Positions 3,158-31,658 of a stretch of 39,943 nt of DNA are shown here, piece by piece. Source of the stretch: Actinomycetota bacterium (GTDB lineage Bacteria > Actinomycetota > Humimicrobiia > Humimicrobiales > Humimicrobiaceae). Location of the stretch: NCBI GenBank assembly GCA_028697935.1, contig JAQVEM010000001.1, positions 2,475 to 42,417 on the forward strand. Reading direction: 5' to 3'. Below the pieces are notes generated by a model that saw only the letters and a list, made by a program, of their open reading frames with translations, had not been told where the DNA came from and made no database searches. Every line of letters begins with the position of its first letter. Within the stretch, counting starts at the first letter, position 1. A program made the translations under genes and the position numbers.

Positions 3158-4501
3158 TTAGATAGAATTTGAATTAAGAGTAGAGTCAATAAAATATTTT
3201 CTTTTGCCCGATTTTGCAAGGTAGGGAGATTCTGTCTCTTTTATAGTTATTTTAATGTCAGGACCAGCTTGTTTATTTAAGGTACTCAAAATTAAATCAT
3301 CATAAAATGAATTATAATTATTTAATTTAATTAACCAACATACAAGTTCATAATCACTTATCTTTTCTAGGCAATAATACTCTACAGGAATATCTTTAAA
3401 AAGGATAGTAAAACCTGGACCTGTTAATACTCTCCTATTTCCTAAAGTAATTATATCTGAAGTTCTACCTAACACACTATTAATTATTTGTCCATTATAT
3501 TGATAGGATTTATTTATATCATCATCTATGATTATATTGTCACCGACTTGATAATTAATTAAAGGTGTAGCTATATTAAATAAGTCAGTTAACAATGCCT
3601 CCCCTGAATTATTATCACCCTTTTCTTTTAATCTTACAATACTGTTATAACCCACTTCATAAAAACCAGGCACATCAGAAAATGCACATATTCCTCCATC
3701 ATTAGCACCATAACAATCCATAATATTACAATTAAAAGCCTCCTGAATAGTCTTACGATAATTATCAGTCAGTACTTCTGAAGTAGGAAAGCAACATTTA
3801 ATTTTTAAATTTATATTATTTTTTATTACATATTTGGCTAATAGATAAAGTGATGAAGCATAACCATATAAAAAATGAATATGCTTTTTCTTTATCAAGT
3901 CTACATATGATGCACAAGTTTCATCTGACATATTTATACCGTTTACAGCAATTTTCCCCTTTAATCTATAATAAATTATATGCTTAAATGAAGATTTGTG
4001 TTCTACATATAAAGAACTACTTCCTAATGCTAAAAATGGATCTGAATATCTATACCCCATTTTCTCCCAATTATACCAAGTATCAGCATTAATAAAACTC
4101 CAGGAATCATAACTTTGATAATAAGCTGATGGATTTCCAGTTGAACCCCCTGTATGACCTTTTATATGAGGAATATTATTAATCTGTTTAGAGATAAATT
4201 GGGGGAATTTATCCCGAAGCGTATTCTTTGTTAAAATAGGTATATATTTAAGGTCATTAATGTTTTTAATATCTGATGGCACTATATTATTTTCAGCAAA
4301 TAAATTTTTATAATAATCTGTATTTCTATAAGCATATTCAATTAGCTGAGTTAATTTTTTATTCTGCCATTCAGCTATTTCTGATTTACTCCAACAATTC
4401 ATATCTTTTATTTGATTGTAAAATTTTTTTAAAGATGTGTGCATTAATAAATCTGCAAGTGGAATAAATATATTCTTAATAACATACTTATTATCTATCA
4501 T
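3158..4501 (-). CDS. CapK-like / F390-synthetase-family adenylate-forming enzyme (second paralogue)
   Basis: 447-aa ORF with the motif KGHTGGSTGNP and the same architecture as 1657..2976. Its first ~130 codons are duplicated in decayed form at 5891-6278. Confidence 0.7.
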   Translation of the reverse strand: MIDNKYVIKNIFIPLADLLMHTSLKKFYNQIKDMNCWSKSEIAEWQNKKLTQLIEYAYRNTDYYKNLFAENNIVPSDIKNINDLKYIPILTKNTLRDKFPQFISKQINNIPHIKGHTGGSTGNPSAYYQSYDSWSFINADTWYNWEKMGYRYSDPFLALGSSSLYVEHKSSFKHIIYYRLKGKIAVNGINMSDETCASYVDLIKKKHIHFLYGYASSLYLLAKYVIKNNINLKIKCCFPTSEVLTDNYRKTIQEAFNCNIMDCYGANDGGICAFSDVPGFYEVGYNSIVRLKEKGDNNSGEALLTDLFNIATPLINYQVGDNIIIDDDINKSYQYNGQIINSVLGRTSDIITLGNRRVLTGPGFTILFKDIPVEYYCLEKISDYELVCWLIKLNNYNSFYDDLILSTLNKQAGPDIKITIKETESPYLAKSGKRKYFIDSTLNSNSI

Positions 4502-4542
4502 TATTTTAAACCTCCATATAACTATATATATATATATTTAAT

Positions 4543-5601
4543 TTATTTTAATATATTTAATTTATTATTGATAATATTATTAACATCCTTCATTGTAATA
4601 TTCTTTATATTATTAATTAAATCTTTTTTCATAATAATTCTTTGAATTAACCTATTCTTTTTTAATATGAATTTATATTTTTTTTCATAGTCATTTTTAG
4701 ATAATCCCAAAAAAATATAAAACATCTTTTCATATTTTTTATATATATTATTAAAAATATTTATATCTATTAATGATGGCGTATAATCATCCTTTATGTA
4801 TATTCCTTTTATCTCATATTTTGGTTTCTTGCCCTTTATTATAATAAATTGTATGACCATTCCAATTCTAACATTGTTTTTATATATCATATCAAATATG
4901 AAATTTCCTAAAGAATAACATATTATACCTTGTTTATATTCCATAACTGGTTGAATAACATGAGGATGATGTCCTATTATAATATCTGCACCCGCATCAA
5001 TGAATTCTTTTGTATTTTCAATTTGTTTATAGGAAGGAATATTTATATATTCATTACCCCAATGAAAAACAAGTATTTTACAATCTGCGTTTCCCATCTT
5101 ATTAATACAATTTAGTATTGCTTCACGATTATAATCTTGATATAATTTAGTATTATAAATATCATGAATATCATTAAATGCAGCAATAGATATTTTCATA
5201 TTGTTTTTGTAATAATCATAGATAGTATTTTGATATCTACCTATAATATTAAGTCCATTATTTTGAAGAATATTAATAGTACTATTAAAACCCTCTGGAC
5301 CATATTCTAAAATATGATTATTAGCTATATTAATAACATTTATTCCACAATTTTTGAGAAATTGTATGAAATTTTCATTACCTGCAAATGTCATAGAATC
5401 CTTAAATTCAGAATTCGGTAATATTGGAGCTTCAAGATTAATTAAACCAATATCTGAATTAGCAAATATTTTTAAAAAACTTTCTTGCCAGGGAACACCA
5501 TTATGTTTATTAAAATTGCTAATTATACCCTTCCCTTTATGATATGAAAGATTTGCTGGAAAAACATCTCCTGTTGCAGTTAAAATTACTTTATTTTCCA
5601 T
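4543..5601 (-). CDS. CapA-family (PGA_cap, metallophosphoesterase-like) protein
   Basis: 352-aa ORF with the motifs ANNHILEYG, HWGNEY, GADIIIGHHPHVIQP and YSLGNFIFD, which are characteristic of the CapA family. Confidence 0.8.
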   Translation of the reverse strand: MENKVILTATGDVFPANLSYHKGKGIISNFNKHNGVPWQESFLKIFANSDIGLINLEAPILPNSEFKDSMTFAGNENFIQFLKNCGINVINIANNHILEYGPEGFNSTINILQNNGLNIIGRYQNTIYDYYKNNMKISIAAFNDIHDIYNTKLYQDYNREAILNCINKMGNADCKILVFHWGNEYINIPSYKQIENTKEFIDAGADIIIGHHPHVIQPVMEYKQGIICYSLGNFIFDMIYKNNVRIGMVIQFIIIKGKKPKYEIKGIYIKDDYTPSLIDINIFNNIYKKYEKMFYIFLGLSKNDYEKKYKFILKKNRLIQRIIMKKDLINNIKNITMKDVNNIINNKLNILK

Positions 5602-9802: not shown

Positions 9803-9812
9803 ATATTTTTAA

Positions 9813-10555
9813 TCTCACGCAGATTGCGCTGATTCCGCAGATAAGTGCTCTCACAGATAACACAGATTTTAGTTTACCTCTCACAGATTACACGGATAAC
9901 ACAGATAAAAATTTATAATAATAAGATGTTAATATTAGAAGAATTACCGCACGCAGATTGCGCTGATTACGCAGATTTCTTTATTTATGTTAAGAATATT
10001 AAGCACAATCTAAAATTCTGAATTTATCATAGTATATATTATTAAAACCAAAACTGGGCTTAGACATTTCCTTTGCGATTTCAAGAGAGTTAAAATTATA
10101 ATATATTATCAATCATCCATCTGCGTTATCTGCAAAATCTAAGTACTGTATATTTTCATCTCACGCAGATTAAAGAATTTATAATTATAACATTAATAAT
10201 CATCTAACACTTCAAGTATTTATCGCAGTTTATAGTCATTGAAATAAATCATTTGGCTCAGATATTTTTTATTAGATTCCAATATAGTTAAAATTATAAT
10301 GTTTAATAATCATCCATCTGCGTTATCTGCGATATCTGCGTGAAATATAAATAATTATGTTACAGATAACACAGATTATTGTTTTGTAATAAAAAGAGTT
10401 TAAAGTACTTTACTATAAATTAGATCCTCTTACCTTTTTAATTAAGCTATGAATTTTAGGGTAGGTAAAATATAACAAATTTAGATTATTTTGAATTCTT
10501 ATTATAATTAAATCCAATCTGCGGAATCCGCGTTTTTATCTGCTTAATCCGCGGG
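9813..10555. repeat. Composite repeat region: phased 7-mer arrays alternating with core modules M5, M3, M4 and M1
   Basis: Plus-strand order (R = array as CRCAGAT, F = array as ATCTGYG; c = C/G-type, t = T/A-type). R-c 9813-9842, R-t 9848-9867, R-t 9878-9906, M5 9907-9947, R-c 9948-9976, M3 9977-10118, F-c 10119-10140. Then R-c 10159-10170, M4 10171-10315, F-c 10316-10345, R-t 10363-10376, M1 10397-10506, and a degenerate F-c 10517-10555. No ORF of 60 aa or more. Confidence 0.9.
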
Positions 10556-10561
10556 AAAAAA

Positions 10562-18063: not shown

Positions 18064-18293
18064 ATATTACTTAACCTCCATATAACTTATATAAAATTTA
18101 ATTTAATGCACATATTACTAATATGTTATAACCTTATCCTTCCTCCAAATACTATGCATTAATAAAGTTATGTTTTTATACATATAGTATATTTCTTTCT
18201 ATTGCCCCCAAAAGAATGGGAAAGTAAAGGTAATGTATCTTTATTTGGATAGAGGGAACGGATGAAATCAATGATTGGTTGGTATTCCATAGT

Positions 18294-18362
18294 CTACAAA
18301 TTAGTCCACCAATTTACACAAATTAAGGAGAATCCACAAATTTACACAAATTAACACGAATT
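18294..18362 (+). repeat. Phased 8-mer arrays, CACAAATT/CACGAATT dialect (two triplets), left flank of GxxExxY gene 1
   Basis: The sequence is ctacaaatta GTCCACCAATTTACACAAATT aaggagaa TCCACAAATTTACACAAATTAACACGAATT. The period is about 10 bp, and the array runs into the stop codon of 18362..18739. Confidence 0.85.
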
Positions 18363-18739
18363 TATAAGATGAGGCGTTTATATACTAAACTTGAGGATCC
18401 AAAGTTGACTAATAAGCCAACTCTAAGTTTGGTAGCCTTTAGGTAGTTTAATAATTGAGAGATATGATCGTTAGAGATTTCTGCAAGAGCTTTTACTTCA
18501 ACAATTATATTATCAAAGCATAAAAAATCGGCTTTATAACATTTATCTAGGGTTTTCCCTTTATATACTATACGAATATCCTTTTCTTTTTCAAAAGGTA
18601 TTCCTTGCTCTAAAAATTCAAGCATTAAAGATTCTTGATATACAGCTTCAAGAAATCCCGGTCCCAATTCCTTATGAACATTCATACACGCTCCAATTAT
18701 CTTGTAGCATTCTTCTTTATACATAATATCATTATTCAT
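18362..18739 (-). CDS. GxxExxY protein (PD-(D/E)XK nuclease-fold, PDDEXK_3-like), copy 1
   Basis: 125-aa ORF with the family motif GPGFLEAVYQ (G-x-x-E-x-x-Y) and a downstream D...EVK (ADFLCFDNIIVEVKA) typical of PD-(D/E)XK cores. Confidence 0.85.
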   Translation of the reverse strand: MNNDIMYKEECYKIIGACMNVHKELGPGFLEAVYQESLMLEFLEQGIPFEKEKDIRIVYKGKTLDKCYKADFLCFDNIIVEVKALAEISNDHISQLLNYLKATKLRVGLLVNFGSSSLVYKRLIL

Positions 18740-18750
18740 AATTCAAGTAA

Positions 18751-18770
18751 AATTGTGCAAATTGGTGGAC
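18751..18770 (+). repeat. Inverted partner of the 18304-18321 motif (aattgtgcaaattggtggac)
   Basis: Its reverse complement gtccaccaatttgcacaa matches gtccaccaatttacacaa (18304-18321) at 17 of 18 positions. It lies between the GxxExxY start and the stop of the upstream gene. Confidence 0.85.
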
Positions 18771-19747
18771 TATAAATTATATATTCCCGGTTTATATTTG
18801 GCTAAGTTTCGTGGATCGCTGAACCACTCTACTGTTTTTTCAAGACCTTCTCTTAAAGGATATTGAGGTTCATAACCAGTTAGTTCTTTTATTTTGGTGT
18901 TATCACATCTTAATCTGAAGACTTCAGAATGTTCGGGTCTTAACCTTTGTTCTTCAACTATAAGATTTGCATCACTGTGCATTATATCTTTAATCAATGC
19001 AAATAATTCTTTTATAGAAATCTCATCATTTGAACCGATATTTACGGTTTCACCAATTGCTTTATCGCATTTAGCTAATAAAATAAAGCCATTACAAATA
19101 TCTTTCACATAATTGAAATCACGAGTTGGAGTAGTATCACCAATCTTAATTTCTTTATTTCCACTAGCAATTTGAGTGATAATTGTCGGAATCACCGCCC
19201 TGGCAGATTGACGAGGACCATAAGTATTAAATGGACGAACTATAGTAACAGGAAGTTGATAAGCATAATAAAAGCTCGTAGCAATCGCATCAGCACCAAT
19301 TTTACTGGCACTATATGGTGATTGAGGTTGCAATGGATGTTTTTCATCTATGGGAACATATTGTGCGGTACCATAAACTTCGCTGGTAGAAGTTACTAAT
19401 ATTCTTTTGACCTTACAATCTTTAGCTGCTTGACAAATATTCAAAGTGCCTTTGATATTAGTATCTATAAAGCTTTGTGGAGCAATATATGAATAGGGAA
19501 TAGCAATCAATGCAGCTAAGTGGAATATAACATCTATCCCCTTACAAATTTCTCTACAATATGCTGGATCTCTTACATCTCCACAAACAATCTCTAAATT
19601 AGAAGTTTGTTGAATATCTTCCAGCCATCCCCAGTAATTAAAAGAATTATATTGAGCTAAAGCTCTAACATCATATCCTTCCGCTAATAAAGATTCTGTT
19701 AGATGTGACCCAATAAATCCATCAGCTCCCGTAACTAAAACTTTCAT
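18770..19747 (-). CDS. NAD-dependent sugar-nucleotide dehydratase/epimerase (extended SDR, LegB-like 4,6-dehydratase type)
   Basis: Rossmann motif [12 protein letters not shown], then [11 protein letters not shown], and a catalytic YSASK. I use the ATG at 19747, which is preceded by AAGGAAG. The tracked GTG extension (VDRRKED) reads into the repeat motif. Confidence 0.75.
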   Translation of the reverse strand: MKVLVTGADGFIGSHLTESLLAEGYDVRALAQYNSFNYWGWLEDIQQTSNLEIVCGDVRDPAYCREICKGIDVIFHLAALIAIPYSYIAPQSFIDTNIKGTLNICQAAKDCKVKRILVTSTSEVYGTAQYVPIDEKHPLQPQSPYSASKIGADAIATSFYYAYQLPVTIVRPFNTYGPRQSARAVIPTIITQIASGNKEIKIGDTTPTRDFNYVKDICNGFILLAKCDKAIGETVNIGSNDEISIKELFALIKDIMHSDANLIVEEQRLRPEHSEVFRLRCDNTKIKELTGYEPQYPLREGLEKTVEWFSDPRNLAKYKPGIYNL

Positions 19748-19762
19748 ATCTTCCTTTCTTCT

Positions 19763-20073
19763 GTCCACGAATTTTCACAAATTAGCACGAATTATTATAA
19801 TTATCTAAATTTATTATAATCCAATTTTGCTATTTAATTAATTCAACTTTGCCAAATCTCTCAAAACCCTTATTCCCCTTGACTTACATTGAGGACAGGT
19901 AACGACGAGTATGTCGTTTATTCTGGAAAGTATCCATCCGCTCTCTGTCCTTACCCTCTCAACATTCTCAATACATGTAAAGCTTCAGCACGCTCCGACT
20001 ACACAAATTTTTCAATCCTCTAATCCCCTTTCAACCTTCTCTATTTCGTGTTAATTTGTGCAAATTCGTGGAC
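19763..20073. repeat. 311-bp non-coding element bounded by ~31-bp terminal inverted repeats of the CACGAATT dialect (MITE-like)
   Basis: The left end is GTCCACGAATTTTCACAAATTAGCACGAATT (19763-19793). The reverse complement of the right end (20041-20073) is GTCCACGAATTTGCACAAATTAACACGAAATAG, with about 28 of 31 identical. The 247-bp core has no ORF and contains a GC-richer hairpin segment. Confidence 0.7.
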
Positions 20074-20226
20074 TAAGTTAGAGGTTTGTTGAATATCTTC
20101 CAGCCATCCCCAATAATTAAAAGAATTATATTGAGCTAAAGCCCTAACATCATATCCTTCTGCTAATAAAGATTCTGTTAGATGAGACCCAATAAAACCA
20201 TCAGCACCCGTAACTAAAACTTTCAT
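20074..20226 (-). pseudogene. Duplicated 5' fragment (codons 1-51) of the SDR gene 18770..19747
   Basis: 153 bp align with 19595-19747 with 8 mismatches by my count, and the encoded 51 aa are identical. The reading frame then runs into the repeat (tail [10 protein letters not shown], tracked ORF 20041..20226). Confidence 0.9.
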
Positions 20227-20336
20227 TTATTCAATCCTTTATATTATTCCATAAAAAAAATAGTGGTTAATTTATAAAGTATTTATTAAGTTTTTTTGTA
20301 TCAATTAATAAATCTTTTACTGTTCATAATGTAAGC

Positions 20337-23405: not shown

Positions 23406-23489
23406 AGATGTGACCCAATAAATCCATCGGCTCCCGTGACTAAAACTTTCATATCTTCGTTTCTTCTGTCCACGAATTTTCACAAATTT
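23406..23489 (-). pseudogene. Third copy of the SDR gene 5' end (about 15 codons plus 37 bp of upstream leader including the GTCCACGAATTTTCACAAATT motif)
   Basis: About 81 bp match 19703-19783 with 3 mismatches. Two are synonymous, and one is in the Shine-Dalgarno region (aaggaag to aacgaag). Confidence 0.85.
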
Positions 23490-23501
23490 CCTAATTAAAC
23501 T

Positions 23502-23528
23502 TTCTCAACCTTCTCAACCTTTACAATA
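23502..23528 (+). repeat. Short phased array, TTCTCAACC dialect (period 9)
   Basis: The sequence is ttctcaacc ttctcaacc tttacaata. Related tctcaac/tctcaat pairs lie at 19957-19972, and a tttcaacct lies at 20029-20037. Confidence 0.6.
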
Positions 23529-23565
23529 ACATTCAAATACTATGAACATTTAAATAATCTCTTAA

Positions 23566-25126: not shown

Positions 25127-26120
25127 CTCTCACAGATTGCACAGATGACACAGATAAGGTCTCTCACAGATTACACAGATAACACAGATAAAAATTTATA
25201 ATAATAGGTTGTAAACATTAGCAGGATTACCTCACGCAGATTACGCTGATTTCGCAGATAAGTTCTCTCACAGATAGCACAGATATAATTTATAATTAAA
25301 AATATGTTCATTTACAATGCATTAATGTTTGTAGCTAAATTTTATAGCTTTTAAATTGATCAATTAGCTCAATTTATCTCACGCAGATTACGCTGATTCC
25401 GCAGATATGGTCTCTCACAGATTACACAGATATCACAGATTATAATTATAATAAGATTGTTAAAACTGTATCAATTAATTAAAATTGCGTCTTATCGGCA
25501 TATATTAACATTCCCCTTGAATTAATTTTTAAAATCAGAATAAGTTCTTAGAGCATTACCATTCTCTATTCTAAAAAACTAATAAGGGCTTTTTTAAATA
25601 ACCGTTAGTATAAACCATGTTTCTATTCCAGATAAAATTATCATATCCATCAATTTCATTATAAGTGTTTTTAAAGTAATTCTGAAGTTAATTCATTATG
25701 ACGGTAAGAAATAGCACAATTTACATTATACATTAATTCTTTTAATTTCACTATAAATCCTTATCTGTGATATCTGTGATATCTGTGTTATCTGTGTTAT
25801 CTGTAACATAATTTTTTATATTTCACGCAGATATCGCAGATAACGCAGATGGATGATTATAAATACATTATAATTTTAACTATATTGAATCTATTAAAAA
25901 ATATCTGAGCCAAATGATTTATTTCAATGACTATAAACTGCGATAAATACTTGAAGTGTTAGATGATTATTAATGTTATAATTATAAATTCTTTAATCTG
26001 CGGAATCAGCGTAATCTGCGTGCAGTAATTCTTCTAATATTAACATCTTATTATTATAAATTTATATCTGTGTTATCTGTGCTATCTGTGAGAGACCTCA
26101 TCTGCGATATCTGCGTGAAA
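25127..26120. repeat. 1-kb ORF-free composite repeat region between wzx start and the next gene's stop
   Basis: Left half, all R orientation: R-t 25127-25155, R-t 25161-25189, M5-like 25190-25229, R-c 25230-25259, R-t 25265-25284, inverted M2 25285-25376, R-c 25377-25406, R-t 25411-25440. A unique 322-bp centre spans 25441-25762. Right half: F-t x5 25763-25805, R-c 25821-25850, inverted M4 25851-25994, F-c 25996-26023, inverted M5 about 26024-26065, F-t 26066-26096, F-c 26100-26120. Confidence 0.9.
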
Positions 26121-26128
26121 CATTAAAC

Positions 26129-27058: not shown

Positions 27059-27078
27059 TATTTATTCCTCAATTTATA

Positions 27079-27501
27079 CCTCACGCAGATTACGCTGATT
27101 ACGCAGATTTCTTTATTTATAATTTGAGTGTCAAACATAATCTAAAGTTCTGAATTTATCTATGAATATTGCCAATAATATCAATTAATAGTTGGTTTGG
27201 AGATTTCTTTAACGAATTCAAGAGAGCTAAAATTATAAAGCATTATCATTCATTTATCTGCGTTATCTGCGATATCTAAGCACAGTATATTGTCATCTCA
27301 CGCAGATTACGCTGATTTCGCAGATTAAAGAATTTATAATAAGAATTATAATCATAATCTAAAATCCCAAAGTATTTTCTTATAATTTTGTAACTATACT
27401 CAATTATATGGCCTAAAGCTTTTTAAAGATTTCACTACAGTTAGATTAAATTATTAAACATAAAAACATCCATCTGCGTTATCTGCGCTATCTGCGTGAA
27501 A
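27079..27501. repeat. Composite repeat region (R-c, M3 copy 2, F-c, R-c, diverged M4-like core, F-c)
   Basis: R-c 27079-27107, M3 27108-27255 (alignable to 9977-10118), F-c 27256-27277, R-c 27296-27325, a core 27326-27471 whose ends resemble M4, and F-c 27472-27501 (atctgcgttatctgcgctatctgcgtgaaa). Confidence 0.85.
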
Positions 27502-27511
27502 CATAACTAAT

Positions 27512-27907
27512 TTATTGAAGATCTGGATGATGAATATCATTTGCTACTCTTATTATATTGTCTTTGATTGAATCAGTATTGAAATTGATCAGAAAACCTA
27601 AAGGTTTCTTTGCTATTTTTAGATAAGTTATCAATTGCTTATAATGAACTGGTAATAATGTATCAACAGATTTCAATTCGAGGATTACTTGATCATTTAT
27701 TAAAAAATCAAGTCTGTACTGAATTCCAAGGTTAACACCTTTGTATAGAACTTCTATGGGAACCTGATTTTCTACTTTCAGACCTCTATTATTTAATTCA
27801 ATTAAAAGAGCTTGCGCATAAATATTTTCAAGCAAACCCGGACCTAATATATTGTAAACCTCAAAAACTGAACCTCTGATTTGATAACTTATATCATTCA
27901 AATTCAT
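27512..27907 (-). CDS. GxxExxY protein (PD-(D/E)XK nuclease-fold), copy 2
   Basis: 131-aa ORF with the motif GPGLLENIYAQ and a downstream LDFLINDQVILELKS (D...ELK). Confidence 0.85.
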   Translation of the reverse strand: MNLNDISYQIRGSVFEVYNILGPGLLENIYAQALLIELNNRGLKVENQVPIEVLYKGVNLGIQYRLDFLINDQVILELKSVDTLLPVHYKQLITYLKIAKKPLGFLINFNTDSIKDNIIRVANDIHHPDLQ

Positions 27908-27915
27908 TGTATTTT

Positions 27916-28225
27916 TCTCACGCTGATTACGATAATTCTATTTTTCATTTTATTTCACGCAGATTACGCTGATTTCGCTGATTTTTTTACTTATAATAAG
28001 AATATTCAAAATAATCTAAATTTGTTATATTTTACCTACCCTAAAATTAATAGATTAATTAAAAAGGTAAGAGGAGCTAATTTATAGTAAAGTACTTTAA
28101 ACTCTTTTTATTACAAAACATTAATCTGTGATATCTGTGCAATCTGTGAGAGGTGAAAAAAATCTGTGTTATCTGTGCAATCTGTGAGAGACCTTATCTG
28201 CGTTATCTGCGAAATCTGCGTGAGA
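27916..28225. repeat. Composite repeat region (degenerate R, R-c, inverted M1, two F-t units, F-c)
   Basis: Degenerate tctcacgctgattacgat 27916-27933, R-c 27953-27982 (tttcacgcagattacgctgatttcgctgat), inverted M1 27991-28103, F-t 28122-28153, F-t 28162-28193, F-c 28194-28225. The tracked plus-strand ORF 27881..28087 simply reads through these repeats. Confidence 0.9.
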
Positions 28226-28230
28226 TATCA

Positions 28231-29548: not shown

Positions 29549-29917
29549 TTAATGGGCAATTCTCTGGAATTCTAATTTTGCCACATTGCCAAAGTTTAAG
29601 ATATATCCTACTTTGAGCCCTGTTGCACTTAGATAATTTATTATTTGTGCGCAATGCATTGAATGAATTATATTACAAGCTTTGAGCTCCAGTATAATTT
29701 TACCTTCTACAATAATATCAGCAATATAATCTCCAACAATTTGATCTCTATAAAAAACTGGTATAGGAACCTGATAAACATAACTAATACCTTGATATTT
29801 AAATTCTACACATAAAGCTCGTTCATATACTTTTCCCAAATATCCGGCACCCAGCTCTTTGTGAACAGCAATTGCACAACCAATAATTCTATCACTCAGC
29901 TCCTTCTCATATATCAT
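29549..29917 (-). CDS. GxxExxY-family protein (PD-(D/E)XK fold), copy 3, with the signature Glu replaced by Gly
   Basis: 122-aa ORF that aligns with copies 1 and 2. Its motif reads GAGYLGKVYE (G-x-x-G-x-x-Y), while the D...ELK block (ADIIVEGKIILELKA) is retained. Confidence 0.8.
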   Translation of the reverse strand: MIYEKELSDRIIGCAIAVHKELGAGYLGKVYERALCVEFKYQGISYVYQVPIPVFYRDQIVGDYIADIIVEGKIILELKACNIIHSMHCAQIINYLSATGLKVGYILNFGNVAKLEFQRIAH

Positions 29918-29950: not shown

Positions 29951-30424
29951 TTATATAACCTTTTCGGTGTCTTCGGTGCTATCGGTGGCTAATATTTTTG
30001 TATTGTAAATTACCTTTCGGTGCTCTAGGTGTTTTCGGTGGCTAATAAAAATAAACAGCAGAGTCAATATTGCTCCAAAGAGATTCGCTATCATATCCAT
30101 AGGATTAAAGGTTCTATAAGGCAAGAGATATTGTAAACATTCACTGATTATAGCAGAACCGCCTACAATTAGTATATATTTCAAAACAGATTTATGATTA
30201 AAAATTGGATTGCCTTGCCTTTCCGCTATCAAATATAAAGGGATAAAGACAAGAAAAGATACAAAATGAATAAGATAATCCAATCTAAATTCAAATATAG
30301 ATTTGTGAATGATACGATTTAAATCATCTCCCAAGGGAATAACATTCATTGCTAAAACTATAATCAGCCATCCCCAAAATAACCATCTTGCCCCATTTGC
30401 CATCCTTTTATCTTGTATCATCAT
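29951..30424 (-). CDS. VanZ-like family membrane protein
   Basis: 157-aa ORF with 4 TM-like segments. It has DYLIHFVSFLVF and SECLQYLLPYRTFNPMDMIANLFGAI, resembling VanZ-family blocks. The last ~30 codons are encoded by the TTCGGTG arrays. Confidence 0.6.
   Translation of the reverse strand: MMIQDKRMANGARWLFWGWLIIVLAMNVIPLGDDLNRIIHKSIFEFRLDYLIHFVSFLVFIPLYLIAERQGNPIFNHKSVLKYILIVGGSAIISECLQYLLPYRTFNPMDMIANLFGAILTLLFIFISHRKHLEHRKVIYNTKILATDSTEDTEKVI
29961..30043 (+). repeat. Two phased triplet arrays, TTCGGTG dialect, separated by a 22-bp spacer
   Basis: 7-mers ttcggtg / ttcggtg / atcggtg start at 29963, 29972 and 29981. 7-mers ttcggtg / ctaggtg / ttcggtg start at 30016, 30025 and 30034. The period is exactly 9, and each triplet ends in GGCTAAT. 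Confidence 0.9.
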
Positions 30425-30434
30425 TATATTTTTT

Positions 30435-30542
30435 TCTCTGTGCTCTCAGTGGTTAAATTTTTGTCGGTGTATTCGGTGTTCTCGGTGGCTAATATTTTTG
30501 TATTGTAAATTACTTTTCGGTGCTCTTGGTGTCTTCGGTGGC
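30435..30542 (+). repeat. Second copy of the TTCGGTG double-array module plus a ctctgtg/ctcagtg pair
   Basis: 7-mers start at 30435 and 30444, at 30462, 30471 and 30480, and at 30515, 30524 and 30533 (period 9). The internal spacer gctaatatttttgtattgtaaattac is the same as at 29988-30013. Confidence 0.9.
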
Positions 30543-31658
30543 TTCTTCTTTTTTCTCAAACCATTCATCAAGTACTTTTACAATTCTGCTGGCTGTCTTT
30601 CCATCCCAATATTTAGGTATTTTCCCCTGTTTTACATTCCCTTCAATAATTTCCCTGGCACTATTAACGATACTTTCCACATTCAAGTCAACAAGATGAT
30701 TGGTACCTTCTGTAACGGTTATCGGTCTTTCCGTATTTTCTCGTAAGGTTAAACAAGGAACACCAAAATAGGTTGATTCCTCTTGAATACCTCCCGAATC
30801 TGTTAGGATAAATTTTGCATTCATCTCTAACTTGAGAAAATCTAAATATCCTAATGGCTCAGTAATAATAAGATTTGAACTAGTATTTAAAATAGATGAT
30901 AAACCAAGTTCATAAATATTTTTCCTCGTTCGGGGATGCATAGGAAAGATAATCTTTATTTTTCTCCCTATGATTTCCAAAGAGGTTAGCAACATTTTTA
31001 AACCTTCATACTCATCAACATTAGATGGTCTATGTAATGTTACTAAGGCATATTTTTCATTAGGTACCATATTTAATTGGTGAAAAATATTAGAATTTTC
31101 AGCTTTATCTTTATGTGCGACCAGAGAATCAATCATAATATTTCCCACAAAATAAATTTTACCTGGCTCTATACCCTCTTTTTCCAAATTTTTATTTGCA
31201 TCCAGCGAAGGTGTTAATAAAATATCGGATATTCTATCTGTTAGAACTCTATTTATCTCTTCAGGCATTCTATCATCATAACTTCTTAGACCCGATTCAA
31301 GATGAGCTACAGGAATATATAATTTCTTAGCCACTAAAGCACAAGCAATTGTAGAATTAACATCACCTGCAACAATAACTAAATCAGGTTTATCCTCTGA
31401 TAGAATCAAATCTTCATATCGTTCTATTATCCTGGCTGTCTGTTTCCCCTGTGTGCCTGAACCTACATTTAAATAGGCAGATGGCTCAGGCATAGCCAAA
31501 TCATTAAAAAAGAGTTTGGACATTTGTTCATCATAGTGCTGTCCTGTATGTATTATCTGGGGTTCATATCTATTACTATACAACGATAATTTTCTATAAA
31601 GAGGTGCCATTTTCATAAAATTAGGTCTTGCACCCACTATCAAATGAATTAATCTCAT
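30510..31658 (-). CDS. wecB: UDP-N-acetylglucosamine 2-epimerase (non-hydrolysing, WecB family)
   Basis: 382-aa ORF with VGARPNFMKMAPL, HTGQHYDEQMS, GDVNSTIA and HLESGLRSYDDRMPEEINR. The last ~11 codons (EEATEDTKSTEK) are encoded by the repeat array. Confidence 0.85.
   Translation of the reverse strand: MRLIHLIVGARPNFMKMAPLYRKLSLYSNRYEPQIIHTGQHYDEQMSKLFFNDLAMPEPSAYLNVGSGTQGKQTARIIERYEDLILSEDKPDLVIVAGDVNSTIACALVAKKLYIPVAHLESGLRSYDDRMPEEINRVLTDRISDILLTPSLDANKNLEKEGIEPGKIYFVGNIMIDSLVAHKDKAENSNIFHQLNMVPNEKYALVTLHRPSNVDEYEGLKMLLTSLEIIGRKIKIIFPMHPRTRKNIYELGLSSILNTSSNLIITEPLGYLDFLKLEMNAKFILTDSGGIQEESTYFGVPCLTLRENTERPITVTEGTNHLVDLNVESIVNSAREIIEGNVKQGKIPKYWDGKTASRIVKVLDEWFEKKEEATEDTKSTEK

Follow-up and report, generated by a model that had tools for sequence, protein, structure and literature searches.

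A gene-less inverted-repeat element before a legB-type dehydratase gene: a probable resident of its slot beside an old recombination joint

A 311 bp non-coding element bounded by inverted repeats lies at positions 19763–20073 of a 39,943-nucleotide (nt) stretch of DNA from an Actinomycetota bacterium (GenBank assembly GCA_028697935.1, contig JAQVEM010000001.1); the whole stretch was analysed and is called the window here. The element stands between two copies of the start of a legB-type NAD-dependent 4,6-dehydratase gene, one of which breaks off after codon 51 at the very tip of the element. An initial annotation made from the sequence had implicated the element ends in the rearrangement. This raises the question of whether the element transposed into the gene and broke it or whether the break has another origin. 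The codon-51 stump is best explained as an old recombination scar that is common to other strains, and not as a fresh transposon hit. The complete reading, to which a probability of roughly 0.6 is given, is that the element is a resident gene-less hairpin cassette and that the joint came from a single illegitimate recombination and was later spread by homologous recombination.

The genes of this region all lie on the minus strand. In transcription order, an HpcH-like gene is followed after 110 nt by dehydratase codons 1–51 (20226 to 20074), the element (20073 to 19763), a short spacer, the intact dehydratase gene (19747 to 18770) and a cassette that contains a gene for a GxxExxY protein. The duplicated 5' ends (19594–19760 and 20073–20239) are 92% identical over 167 nt. 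Homology of the fragment ends at the arm tip, with an ambiguity of one base, as the G at 20073 may open either codon 52 or the arm; within this base the breakpoint was where the initial annotation had placed it. A repeat search of the window gave two inverted-repeat arms of 32 nt each (19763–19794 and 20042–20073), 91% complementary and 247 nt apart, which agrees with the terminal inverted repeats (TIRs) of about 90% identity and the 247 bp core free of open reading frames (ORFs) reported before, as does the position of the left tip at −16 from the intact ATG. A 61-residue ORF (20041–20226) spans the stump–arm junction and recurs with the same HpcH surroundings in L180 and L181, which are independent assemblies, so the junction is not a product of mis-assembly. 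For the intact dehydratase protein an exact look-up gave no record.

Relatives were collected by a metagenome scan with the arm sequence, which gave 51 loci on short metagenome contigs. The junction of arm tip, spacer and dehydratase ATG was found at about 30 places in the fetched loci. Full two-arm elements occurred in about 17 sequence-distinct versions of 157–707 bp. They share one slot, 15 nt before the dehydratase gene, and nearly all lie between a nucleotidyltransferase (or flippase) gene and the dehydratase, with the GxxExxY cassette after the gene (type A loci). The dehydratase genes in those contigs are only 76–87% identical to that of the window at the DNA level, and the spacer and its ribosome-binding site (RBS) are the same. 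Because the slot has been kept across genes that differ to this extent, the element is regarded as a resident of the slot; a recent insertion does not fit. Related elements were found at a second conserved site (L012/L033 and L041/L054, the latter with the hairpin module B described below), so that other TIR-bounded non-coding copies do exist, as had been anticipated; in the fetched contigs full copies are found in these two conserved slots only. A target-site duplication was seen neither at the element (flanks ...ttct^GTCCAC and GTGGAC^taag, with ^ marking the border) nor in the sister copies (flanks ...ATTTA^...^AGAAG) nor at the second conserved site, which extends the earlier negative finding for the window.

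An exact look-up of the GxxExxY protein led to related contigs of about 95% DNA identity. Contigs L002–L006, L008 and L009 consist of the HpcH gene, 108 nt and an intact dehydratase gene; L001 and L007 have different genes upstream, and L007 retains a decayed element in the same slot. The element-free contigs (L002–L009) also lack the 153 bp duplicate and have a different allele, and the remaining relatives have an element in the slot. No precise presence/absence pair, that is, no empty site, was present among the contigs examined. Contigs of the L002 type were considered as simple deletion derivatives of the window and this was rejected, as they carry a third allele of codons 45–51 (DIGSNSNL).

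The same codon-51 junction, ...CAACAAACCTCTAA(C/T)TTA^GTCCACGAATTT... (codon 51 followed directly by GTCCAC), was found in three further contigs (L060, L061 and L023). In these an element or partial element with the spacer comes before the stump; after it come one arm, a 9-mer-like leader of about 70 nt, a gene for an FAD-dependent oxidoreductase, a gene for a different SDR (SDR2) and a GxxExxY cassette. In type B contigs (L016, L022, L043, L053, L057 and L058) the nucleotidyltransferase gene is followed at once by the same arm, leader, oxidoreductase gene and SDR2 gene. The supposed tie between the breakpoint and the full element is contradicted by this identical junction with only one arm and about 70 nt. 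Dehydratase codon 52 onward follows the element in none of the contigs; because of this and of the missing target-site duplication, a simple insertion into the gene is excluded, and transposition of the element is not the best account of the break at codon 51. Insertion of a composite unit (element, gene and GxxExxY cassette) in codon 51 was also rejected, since an aminotransferase stump and not codon 52 onward lies beyond the cassette.

The junction lies inside a 7-nt microhomology, AATTTAG, between gene codons 49–52 and the sub-repeat that normally precedes the arm. Codons 49–52 read TCT AAT TTA GAG (TCTAATTTA^GAG) only in the DIQQTSNL allele of the dehydratase, and the arm is flanked in type A and type B loci (for type B, in contigs that include the flank) by an extra sub-repeat, CACGAATTTA^GTCCAC; because these match, AATTTAG is common to both partners across the break. 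The stump in L023 differs from the window copies at 19–23 of 153 positions and its last 30 nt are identical to those of L061, and in the independent assembly L181 the stump starts with L002-type polymorphisms and ends in the window junction. Judged by their sequences, these are mosaics in which the junction block has moved between backgrounds by homologous recombination in the 5' region of the gene.

In the favoured explanation the element would permanently fill the slot before the legB-like dehydratase gene, its length shifting through gain and loss of internal repeats and modules and not through coming and going of the element. The joint between codon 51 and the arm tip would have arisen once, by illegitimate recombination at AATTTAG between codons 49–52 of one allele and the extra sub-repeat, either between a type A and a type B locus or as a tandem duplication. 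It would then have been carried into locus variants by homologous recombination in the first ∼130 nt of the gene and in the arm and leader. Because the joint would have been carried between variants in this way, the window can be seen as a mosaic with three dehydratase 5' copies: a relic of codons 1–15, the fragment of codons 1–51 and the intact gene. As DNA, the arm repeats and the gene stumps may serve as portable homology for the swapping of glycan-gene modules. At the RNA level we infer, by analogy with the intervening sequences (IVSs) of 23S rRNA, that the arms pair to give a long stem in the operon's polycistronic transcript; lying just upstream of the RBS, such a stem could act as a processing, stability or insulation element. 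The predicted fold of the transcribed strand closes on the arms (−85.7 kcal/mol, z = −6.3).

The features of the locus are collected in Table 1. In the sense direction members of the family begin with a 5' arm and an A-run; next comes a GGTTGAGAG 9-mer array, whose length varies greatly, then nested modules in some members, an AT-rich conserved segment of ∼55 nt and the 3' arm. Each arm of the 311 bp element consists of three ∼10-nt CAC(G/A)AATT sub-repeats (CACGAATTTT, CACAAATTAG and CACGAATTAT). Six copies of the arm motif GTCCACSAATTTDCACAA are present in the window, compared with 0.2 expected from shuffles (0 of 100 shuffles reached six): one in each arm of the element, one in each arm of the GxxExxY cassette (18304 and 18753), a second unit at 18332 and the site at 23468. 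The decayed 9-mer array is also homologous to the leader before the FAD-oxidoreductase gene of type B loci. In the AT-rich segment core positions 1–70 match in about 15 loci. The small hairpin has one compensatory stem change, read directly from the sequences, among only three variants (weak support). Module B occurs in tandem one to three times in sister elements (L014, L026, L036, L046 and L049) and also in the second-site element of L041/L054, and element length varies through the 9-mer arrays and through these one to three copies; the four distinct variants of module B include one compensatory pair and several disruptions. In L014 (7834–8113), L026 (1162–1595) and L046 (2837–3116) this hairpin-rich module is repeated two to three times with a period of ∼150–160 nt, the copies being separated by 9-mer arrays, and it has no Rfam match.

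Table 1. Features of the element and its surroundings in the window
Feature	Positions	Strand	Remarks
Stump of DegT-like aminotransferase gene (N-terminal, 40 codons)	18168..18290	-	ORF MEYQPIIDFIRSLYPNKDTLPLL...; compared with the L039/L035 protein
GxxExxY (PDDEXK_3) cassette	18304..18770	-	Gene 18362-18739; same-dialect arms (GTCCACCAATTT...); TA next to both tips; flanking-repeat z = 8.4
Intact legB-type NAD-dependent 4,6-dehydratase gene	18770..19747	-	TIGR04180, 503 bits, above cut-off
Spacer (15 nt)	19748..19762	-	Ribosome-binding site AGAAGAAAGGAAGAT; between arm tip and ATG (19745-19747)
3' arm	19763..19794	-	...AATTCGTGCTAATTTGTGAAAATTCGTGGAC; tip 15 nt from dehydratase ATG
AT-rich 3' segment	19795..19847	-	Just inside 3' arm; family-conserved (...TTGAATTA.TT.A.TAGC.AAATTGGATTA...ATAATTATAA...)
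Hairpin module B (∼100 nt)	19858..19958	-	Single copy in window element
Small hairpin module	19970..20010	-	AAATTTGTGTAGTCGGAGC-GTGCTGAA-GCTTTACATGTATT; also in elements of L017 and L048
Decayed GGTTGAGAG 9-mer array	20011..20041	-	GAGAAGGTTGAAAGGGGATTAGAGGATTGAA; homologous to long 9-mer arrays of sister elements
5' arm (transcription sense)	20042..20073	-	GTCCACGAATTTGCACAAATTAACACGAAATA; three ∼10-nt sub-repeats CACGAATTTG / CACAAATTAA / CACGAAAT
Gene fragment S' (dehydratase codons 1-51, 153 bp)	20074..20226	-	Preceded by HpcH-type 110-nt intergenic region, not by element
Older relic	23406..23530	-	Dehydratase codons 1-15 (23406-23452), same spacer (23453-23467), partial 3' arm (23468-23489), two GGTTGAGAA units (to about 23530)

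The core gave no coding signal, with stops in all six frames, and a decayed ORF was rejected after a blastx comparison with the local GxxExxY and four-helix-bundle proteins (best E = 0.25). Rfam at the gathering threshold gave only a tRNA in the whole window, which contains no rRNA, and a permissive Rfam search of 19700–20300 gave nothing credible (best match RAGATH-17, 23 bits against a threshold of 102 bits). A scan for σ70 promoters and terminators was uninformative, with promoter-like sites at background level (13, 10.8 expected) and no terminators.

Several points weigh against the favoured explanation. It is drawn from one 40-kb window of a genome and short metagenome contigs, and a full tandem (stump, element and a gene preceded by another element) is present in no contig. 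With their third allele, contigs L002–L009 do not fit in as simple deletion derivatives of the window arrangement. The 17 arm pairs have no compensatory changes and no sense-strand G·U bias (A·C 16, G·T 14), and the mismatch positions are fixed for each arm, which gives no support to a role at the RNA level; units of the same arm also lie in-frame in a DegT-like gene, where they must be translated through and where a cut would cost the cell the mRNA, which argues against obligatory cleavage. The break coincides with the first base of an arm, a second swap point lies 10–12 nt inside the arm after the dehydratase stop codon, and several stumps of gene 5' ends lie next to arms (18168–18290, 23406–23452 and one in L037). 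Together, these break, swap and stump positions could reflect cutting at sub-repeat boundaries and not chance microhomology.

An older stump, the relic at 23406–23530, lies between the flippase and decarboxylase genes, and its partial arm comprises about 21 nt of the 3' arm. It also follows the flippase gene in the element-free contigs L002–L006 and L008 (L009 starts downstream of the region). In L029 and L042 full dehydratase copies lie on both sides of a decarboxylase–aminotransferase–HpcH block, the second being preceded by a solo arm and spacer; because both copies are still present there, the codon 1–15 relic is taken as the remnant of the first gene copy. In L029 the second copy (4208–5181) is a pseudogene, as its start is altered and it has both a frameshift and an internal stop, and the first copy is intact. 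The aminotransferase stump at 18168–18290 comes directly after the GxxExxY cassette, where relatives have the full gene. L037 has a further relic at 2682–2940, made up of part of an element, a spacer that is shortened and the dehydratase gene from codon 1 to about codon 49, with a stop inside the frame. It comes after what is left of a flippase gene, and unrelated sequence, a CACTTTGAACT-type array and a nucleotidyltransferase gene come after it in turn. The end codons of the stumps differ (15, about 35, about 49 and 51).

These stumps bear on the main rival to the favoured explanation, in which the joint would come from homing-like one-sided copying: a break at the arm tip or at a sub-repeat boundary, in the donor or in the recipient, would be repaired by copying the element, spacer and 5' end of the gene from another allele, and the free end would be joined at AATTTAG, so that the duplication is made in one step. 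Such a process would account for the break exactly at the arm tip, for the recurrence of gene 5' stumps beside arms (in the relic, the aminotransferase stump and L037), for the exchange of GxxExxY and four-helix-bundle cassettes 10–12 nt inside the arm after the stop codon, and for the nuclease-fold proteins encoded next door. Its difficulties are that the joint is common by descent and recombination and need not have formed in the locus variant of the window, that the stumps end at different codons, and that cleavage is without direct evidence while microhomology alone suffices. We consider this process unlikely, although it is the most serious of the competing explanations.

The cassettes that are exchanged were also characterized. 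In the window the stop codon TAG of the dehydratase gene and the tip of the following cassette (TAGTCCAC) have one base in common, and in nearly all relatives the tip follows TAG directly as a rule. The window encodes three GxxExxY paralogues, the further two (27512–27907 and 29549–29917; PF13366) being 37% and 40% identical to the first; E41, D71, E81 and K83 are common to all three. The two lie amid different arm dialects, CGCAGAT and CACCGAAGA, and the 'tips' of the arrays that flank the paralogue at 27512–27907 face the gene, which may sit between two elements and not inside one. The AlphaFold model of the GxxExxY protein (pLDDT, the predicted local distance difference test score, 92.8) has a minimal PD-(D/E)XK fold. 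Its nearest solved folds are generic PD-(D/E)XK nucleases, namely Cas4 SSO0001 (the best, with a template-modelling score of 0.47–0.58), λ-exonuclease-like proteins and DrdV, all with scores of at most 0.58; a sequence search of the PDB gave nothing significant (T7 endonuclease I at E = 0.35). The protein is probably an active nuclease, and nothing links it to transposition. The literature searched contains no report of transposase activity or of a transposition function for PDDEXK_3 and no GxxExxY paper on such cassettes.

In L029 (8766–9740), L035, L039 (2386–2927), L046 and L047 only the first 10–12 nt of the GTCCAC arm are retained; beyond them a 23S_rRNA_IVP family gene (PF05635, E = 3e-36, with a weak bAvd match; an Avd-like four-helix bundle) takes the place of the GxxExxY cassette. 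This gene is bracketed by (GGTTGAGAG)n and (CCTCTCAAC)n, the former being the 9-mer found inside the 311 bp element. The arms of the element and of the GxxExxY cassette are 83–90% identical, and the 9-mer repeated in the core is the arm unit of the four-helix-bundle cassette, so the core is not a gutted GxxExxY cassette. The initial annotation had likened the relation between element and cassette to that of a MITE (miniature inverted-repeat transposable element) to its autonomous partner; the shared arms and the lack of coding capacity held, whereas the core repeats point to the four-helix-bundle cassette and autonomy of the GxxExxY cassette found no support.

The corresponding mechanism, in which a MITE mobilized in trans by the GxxExxY nuclease transposed into dehydratase codon 51 and the cell survived through a second gene copy that was present or restored, is quite improbable. 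The element does look like a MITE and has its arms in common with the cassette, the E...D...ExK nuclease residues are kept in a predicted PD-(D/E)XK fold, three GxxExxY paralogues lie amid three arm dialects, the arm motif is spread over many phyla and found at many ends of contigs, as would be expected for a mobile repeat, and TA adjoins both tips of the GxxExxY cassette. Set against this are the lack of a target-site duplication, of a precise empty site and of codon 52 onward after any element, as well as the core relationship just described and the confinement of full copies to two conserved slots. The far-tip junction with spacer and ATG is ancient and common to about 30 places, the codon-51 junction exists without a full element, and for PDDEXK_3 no transposase activity is known, the literature searches having found none.

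In Bacteroides capsule loci invertible promoters (invertons) classically consist of a non-coding segment of a few hundred base pairs, bounded by inverted repeats, just upstream of a polysaccharide gene. The layout of the element matches this, with the arms as putative recombinase sites and the core as a switch for the dehydratase and downstream glycan genes, yet such a role is very unlikely: all ∼17 distinct copies from many samples have one internal orientation, arm-specific differences at positions 13 and 23 stay with their own side, no recombinase gene is adjacent, promoter-like sites are at background, and the same arms also bracket whole genes and sit in-frame in a gene. Hardly more credible is a chimera of the stump–element–gene arrangement from reads of co-existing strains mis-joined at repeats, even though related strains with different arrangements co-occur in similar samples and contigs often break in these repeats; for the right-hand junction it is largely refuted, as the HpcH–stump–arm junction is identical in the Logan assembly L180 and recurs with strain-level differences in the ENA assembly L181, which reads 47 nt past the junction ORF and well into the core.

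Inverted arrays of this kind are not restricted to the element and its neighbour, and such cassettes fill many of the intergenic gaps among the sugar-biosynthesis genes of this lineage. The arrays bracket eight of the ten GxxExxY or four-helix-bundle genes tested (z = 4.6–35; z ≤ 2.6 for five control genes), and the complementarity of the arms is the conserved feature across dialects, the repeat unit itself differing from cassette to cassette. Other four-helix-bundle paralogues have their own inverted units (the 7-mer GCGGAGA, the 15-mer GTGCGGGAGTTCAAA and the 7-mer AACCCGC). Such paralogues were seen in L022 (1506–1880), L042 (2153–2596), L048 (122–496), L053 (7504–7905) and L123 (5931–6329), in some of which the 3' array lies partly within the C-terminus of the ORF. 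Further dialects of the window (CACGCAGATTACGCTGATTACGCAGAT, CTCTCACAGATTACACAGATAACACAGAT and TAGCCACCGATAGCACCGAAGACACCGA) form inverted pairs around non-coding cores, lie around or beside the two further GxxExxY genes, or form same-orientation tandem arrays (242–415).

The array at 242–415 has five tandem units (ATCTGTG three times plus AGAG) at a spacing of 34–41 nt, all in the same orientation and thus not an inverted pair; the units alternate between two junction types, AGAGGTTAAC... and AGAGACCTT.... Four ORF-free regions of the window (9807–10560, 25127–26127, 27076–27506 and 27919–28228) are made up of inverted pairs, nested or abutting, in the CGCAGATTA and CACAGATWA dialects. About 1 kb is the length of the largest region, and 10500–10560 contains a further CCGCG-type variant. 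Direct copies of ∼80 nt at 29964–30045 and 30464–30545, each a double TTCGGTG-type module, flank the body of a 157-residue ORF (29951–30424), and the first of them overlaps the 3' end of the ORF.

Units of the same arm also occur inside a protein-coding gene. The DegT-like aminotransferase gene after the cassette has a hypervariable in-frame insert made of 36-nt units, each encoding the 12-residue ESTNLHKLSQVQ, in up to eight copies plus one inverted unit (L011, L014, L018, L024, L025, L031, L032, L036, L039, L052, L055 and L056). At the same insert site L013, L035 and L047 have a 9-mer dialect (GGTTGAGAA/CTCAACC) instead. The insert is stop-free and has a length divisible by 3 in 15 of 15 variants.

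A scan with the arm motif of a set with one genome per species gave at least 118 loci. Among the matches listed are Planctomycetota, Bacteroidales, Chloroflexota, Calditrichota, Nitrospirales, Treponema and a Cloacimonetes metagenome-assembled genome (MAG; L089, with a similar motif mix), many of them at contig ends; their forms include runs of the CACGAA sub-repeat and tight hairpins, in GC-rich genomes too. One Bacteroidales MAG (CAYMLS01... contigs, within L065–L136) has at least 21 contigs with the arm motif, many with the motif 10–30 nt from the contig end, and L068 and L072 have in common a ∼190-nt repeat that contains the arm motif and has short terminal inverted repeats, GAGTCCAGT and ACTGTACTC.

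This breadth invites a wider proposal, which is tentative and on balance doubtful: hairpin cassettes with sub-repeat arrays, enclosing a GxxExxY nuclease, an Avd-like protein or nothing, might constitute a class of recombinogenic or selfish elements that spans phyla and is as yet undescribed, the IVSs of 23S rRNA being only its best-known special case. The nuclease would cut at sub-repeat boundaries and so drive slot replacement, in-frame colonization of enzyme loops and glycan-module shuffling, with the codon-51 stump as a by-product. Irrespective of this proposal, the cassette system is richer than a single MITE-like element and, as far as was found, is not described in the searchable literature, where no description of these repeats was found either. 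The GxxExxY (PDDEXK_3) and 23S_rRNA_IVP families are abundant in Bacteroidota, Planctomycetota, cyanobacteria and candidate phyla and are orphans without an established function; the present locus has both as alternative occupants of one intergenic slot, each in its own inverted sub-repeat arrays, beside gene-less and in-frame relatives. What rRNA IVSs are, and whether they are mobile, thus becomes approachable outside rRNA, where allelic variation is readable. For annotation it matters that the repeats break assemblies and create stumps and small fusion ORFs such as the one at 20041–20226; they also mark the joints at which modules of surface-polysaccharide genes are exchanged between strains.

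Among known systems the element works most like an ORF-less IVS or a hairpin repeat of the Correia or repetitive extragenic palindromic (REP) type. The IVSs of 23S rRNA, which contain an S23p ORF in Coxiella and Leptospira and are ORF-less in enterobacteria and Campylobacter, resemble it in that their termini pair into a long stem. RNase III excises an IVS with a 28 bp terminal stem and an ORF of the same protein family as the 23S_rRNA_IVP gene of the cassettes, and mobility of IVSs has been suspected but never shown (PMC4990558). That ORF family is PF05635, as in the sister cassettes of L035, L039, L046, L047 and L029; the 311 bp element itself has no ORF. IVSs and the present cassettes are alike in their sporadic, cross-taxon distribution. 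They differ in location, IVSs being found in rRNA helices 25 or 45 and the present elements in the mRNAs of polysaccharide-locus operons and even in-frame in a protein gene, and in their arms, which here are arrays of 7–15-nt tandem sub-repeats in several dialects.

The Correia elements of Neisseria are 100–155 bp in length, have 26 bp TIRs and a TA duplication, are co-transcribed with their neighbours and are cut by RNase III. The present element resembles these and other MITEs in being short, non-coding and TIR-bounded, in lying at gene boundaries within operons and at rearrangement joints, and in the TA beside the tips of the sister GxxExxY cassette. Unlike a MITE it has no target duplication, no precise empty site and no known transposase partner, is confined to two conserved slots and ranges over 157–707 bp through internal minisatellite change. 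With REP sequences, their bacterial interspersed mosaic elements (BIMEs), the REP doublets forming hairpins (REPINs) and the REP-associated tyrosine transposases (RAYTs) it has in common a small gene with inverted repeat copies on its two sides, the repeat also being dispersed in intergenic regions as singlets, doublets and arrays, paralogues that go with different repeat variants, and repeats that act as recombination and duplication joints. RAYTs are HUH Y1 transposases, whereas the flanked genes here encode PF13366 (PDDEXK_3) proteins or PF05635 Avd-like helical bundles. REP repeats are described as carrying a GTAG or CGTC tag (PMC3733652). Measured against that description, the repeats studied here lack such a tag, and their arms are arrays of tandem sub-repeats and not single GC-rich palindromes.

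Palindromic repeats inserted in-frame in protein genes are known as Rickettsia palindromic elements, and the in-frame, stop-free and length-variable arm units of the DegT-like gene in 15 of 15 contigs are similar to these. The 311 bp element differs from them in being intergenic, and the in-gene inserts differ in being tandem 36-nt (12-residue) arrays with one inverted unit that can be replaced by another dialect. Finally, O-antigen and capsule loci contain gene remnants and repeat joints at module boundaries. The present locus is like them in its stumps of the gene that normally follows the junction, in its mosaic alleles and in the alternative blocks that are exchanged between conserved flanks (the dehydratase gene or the FAD-oxidoreductase and SDR2 genes; a decarboxylase–aminotransferase–HpcH block that is present or absent); unlike them, it has hairpin cassettes of sub-repeats at its joints in place of insertion sequences or JUMPstart-type sequences.

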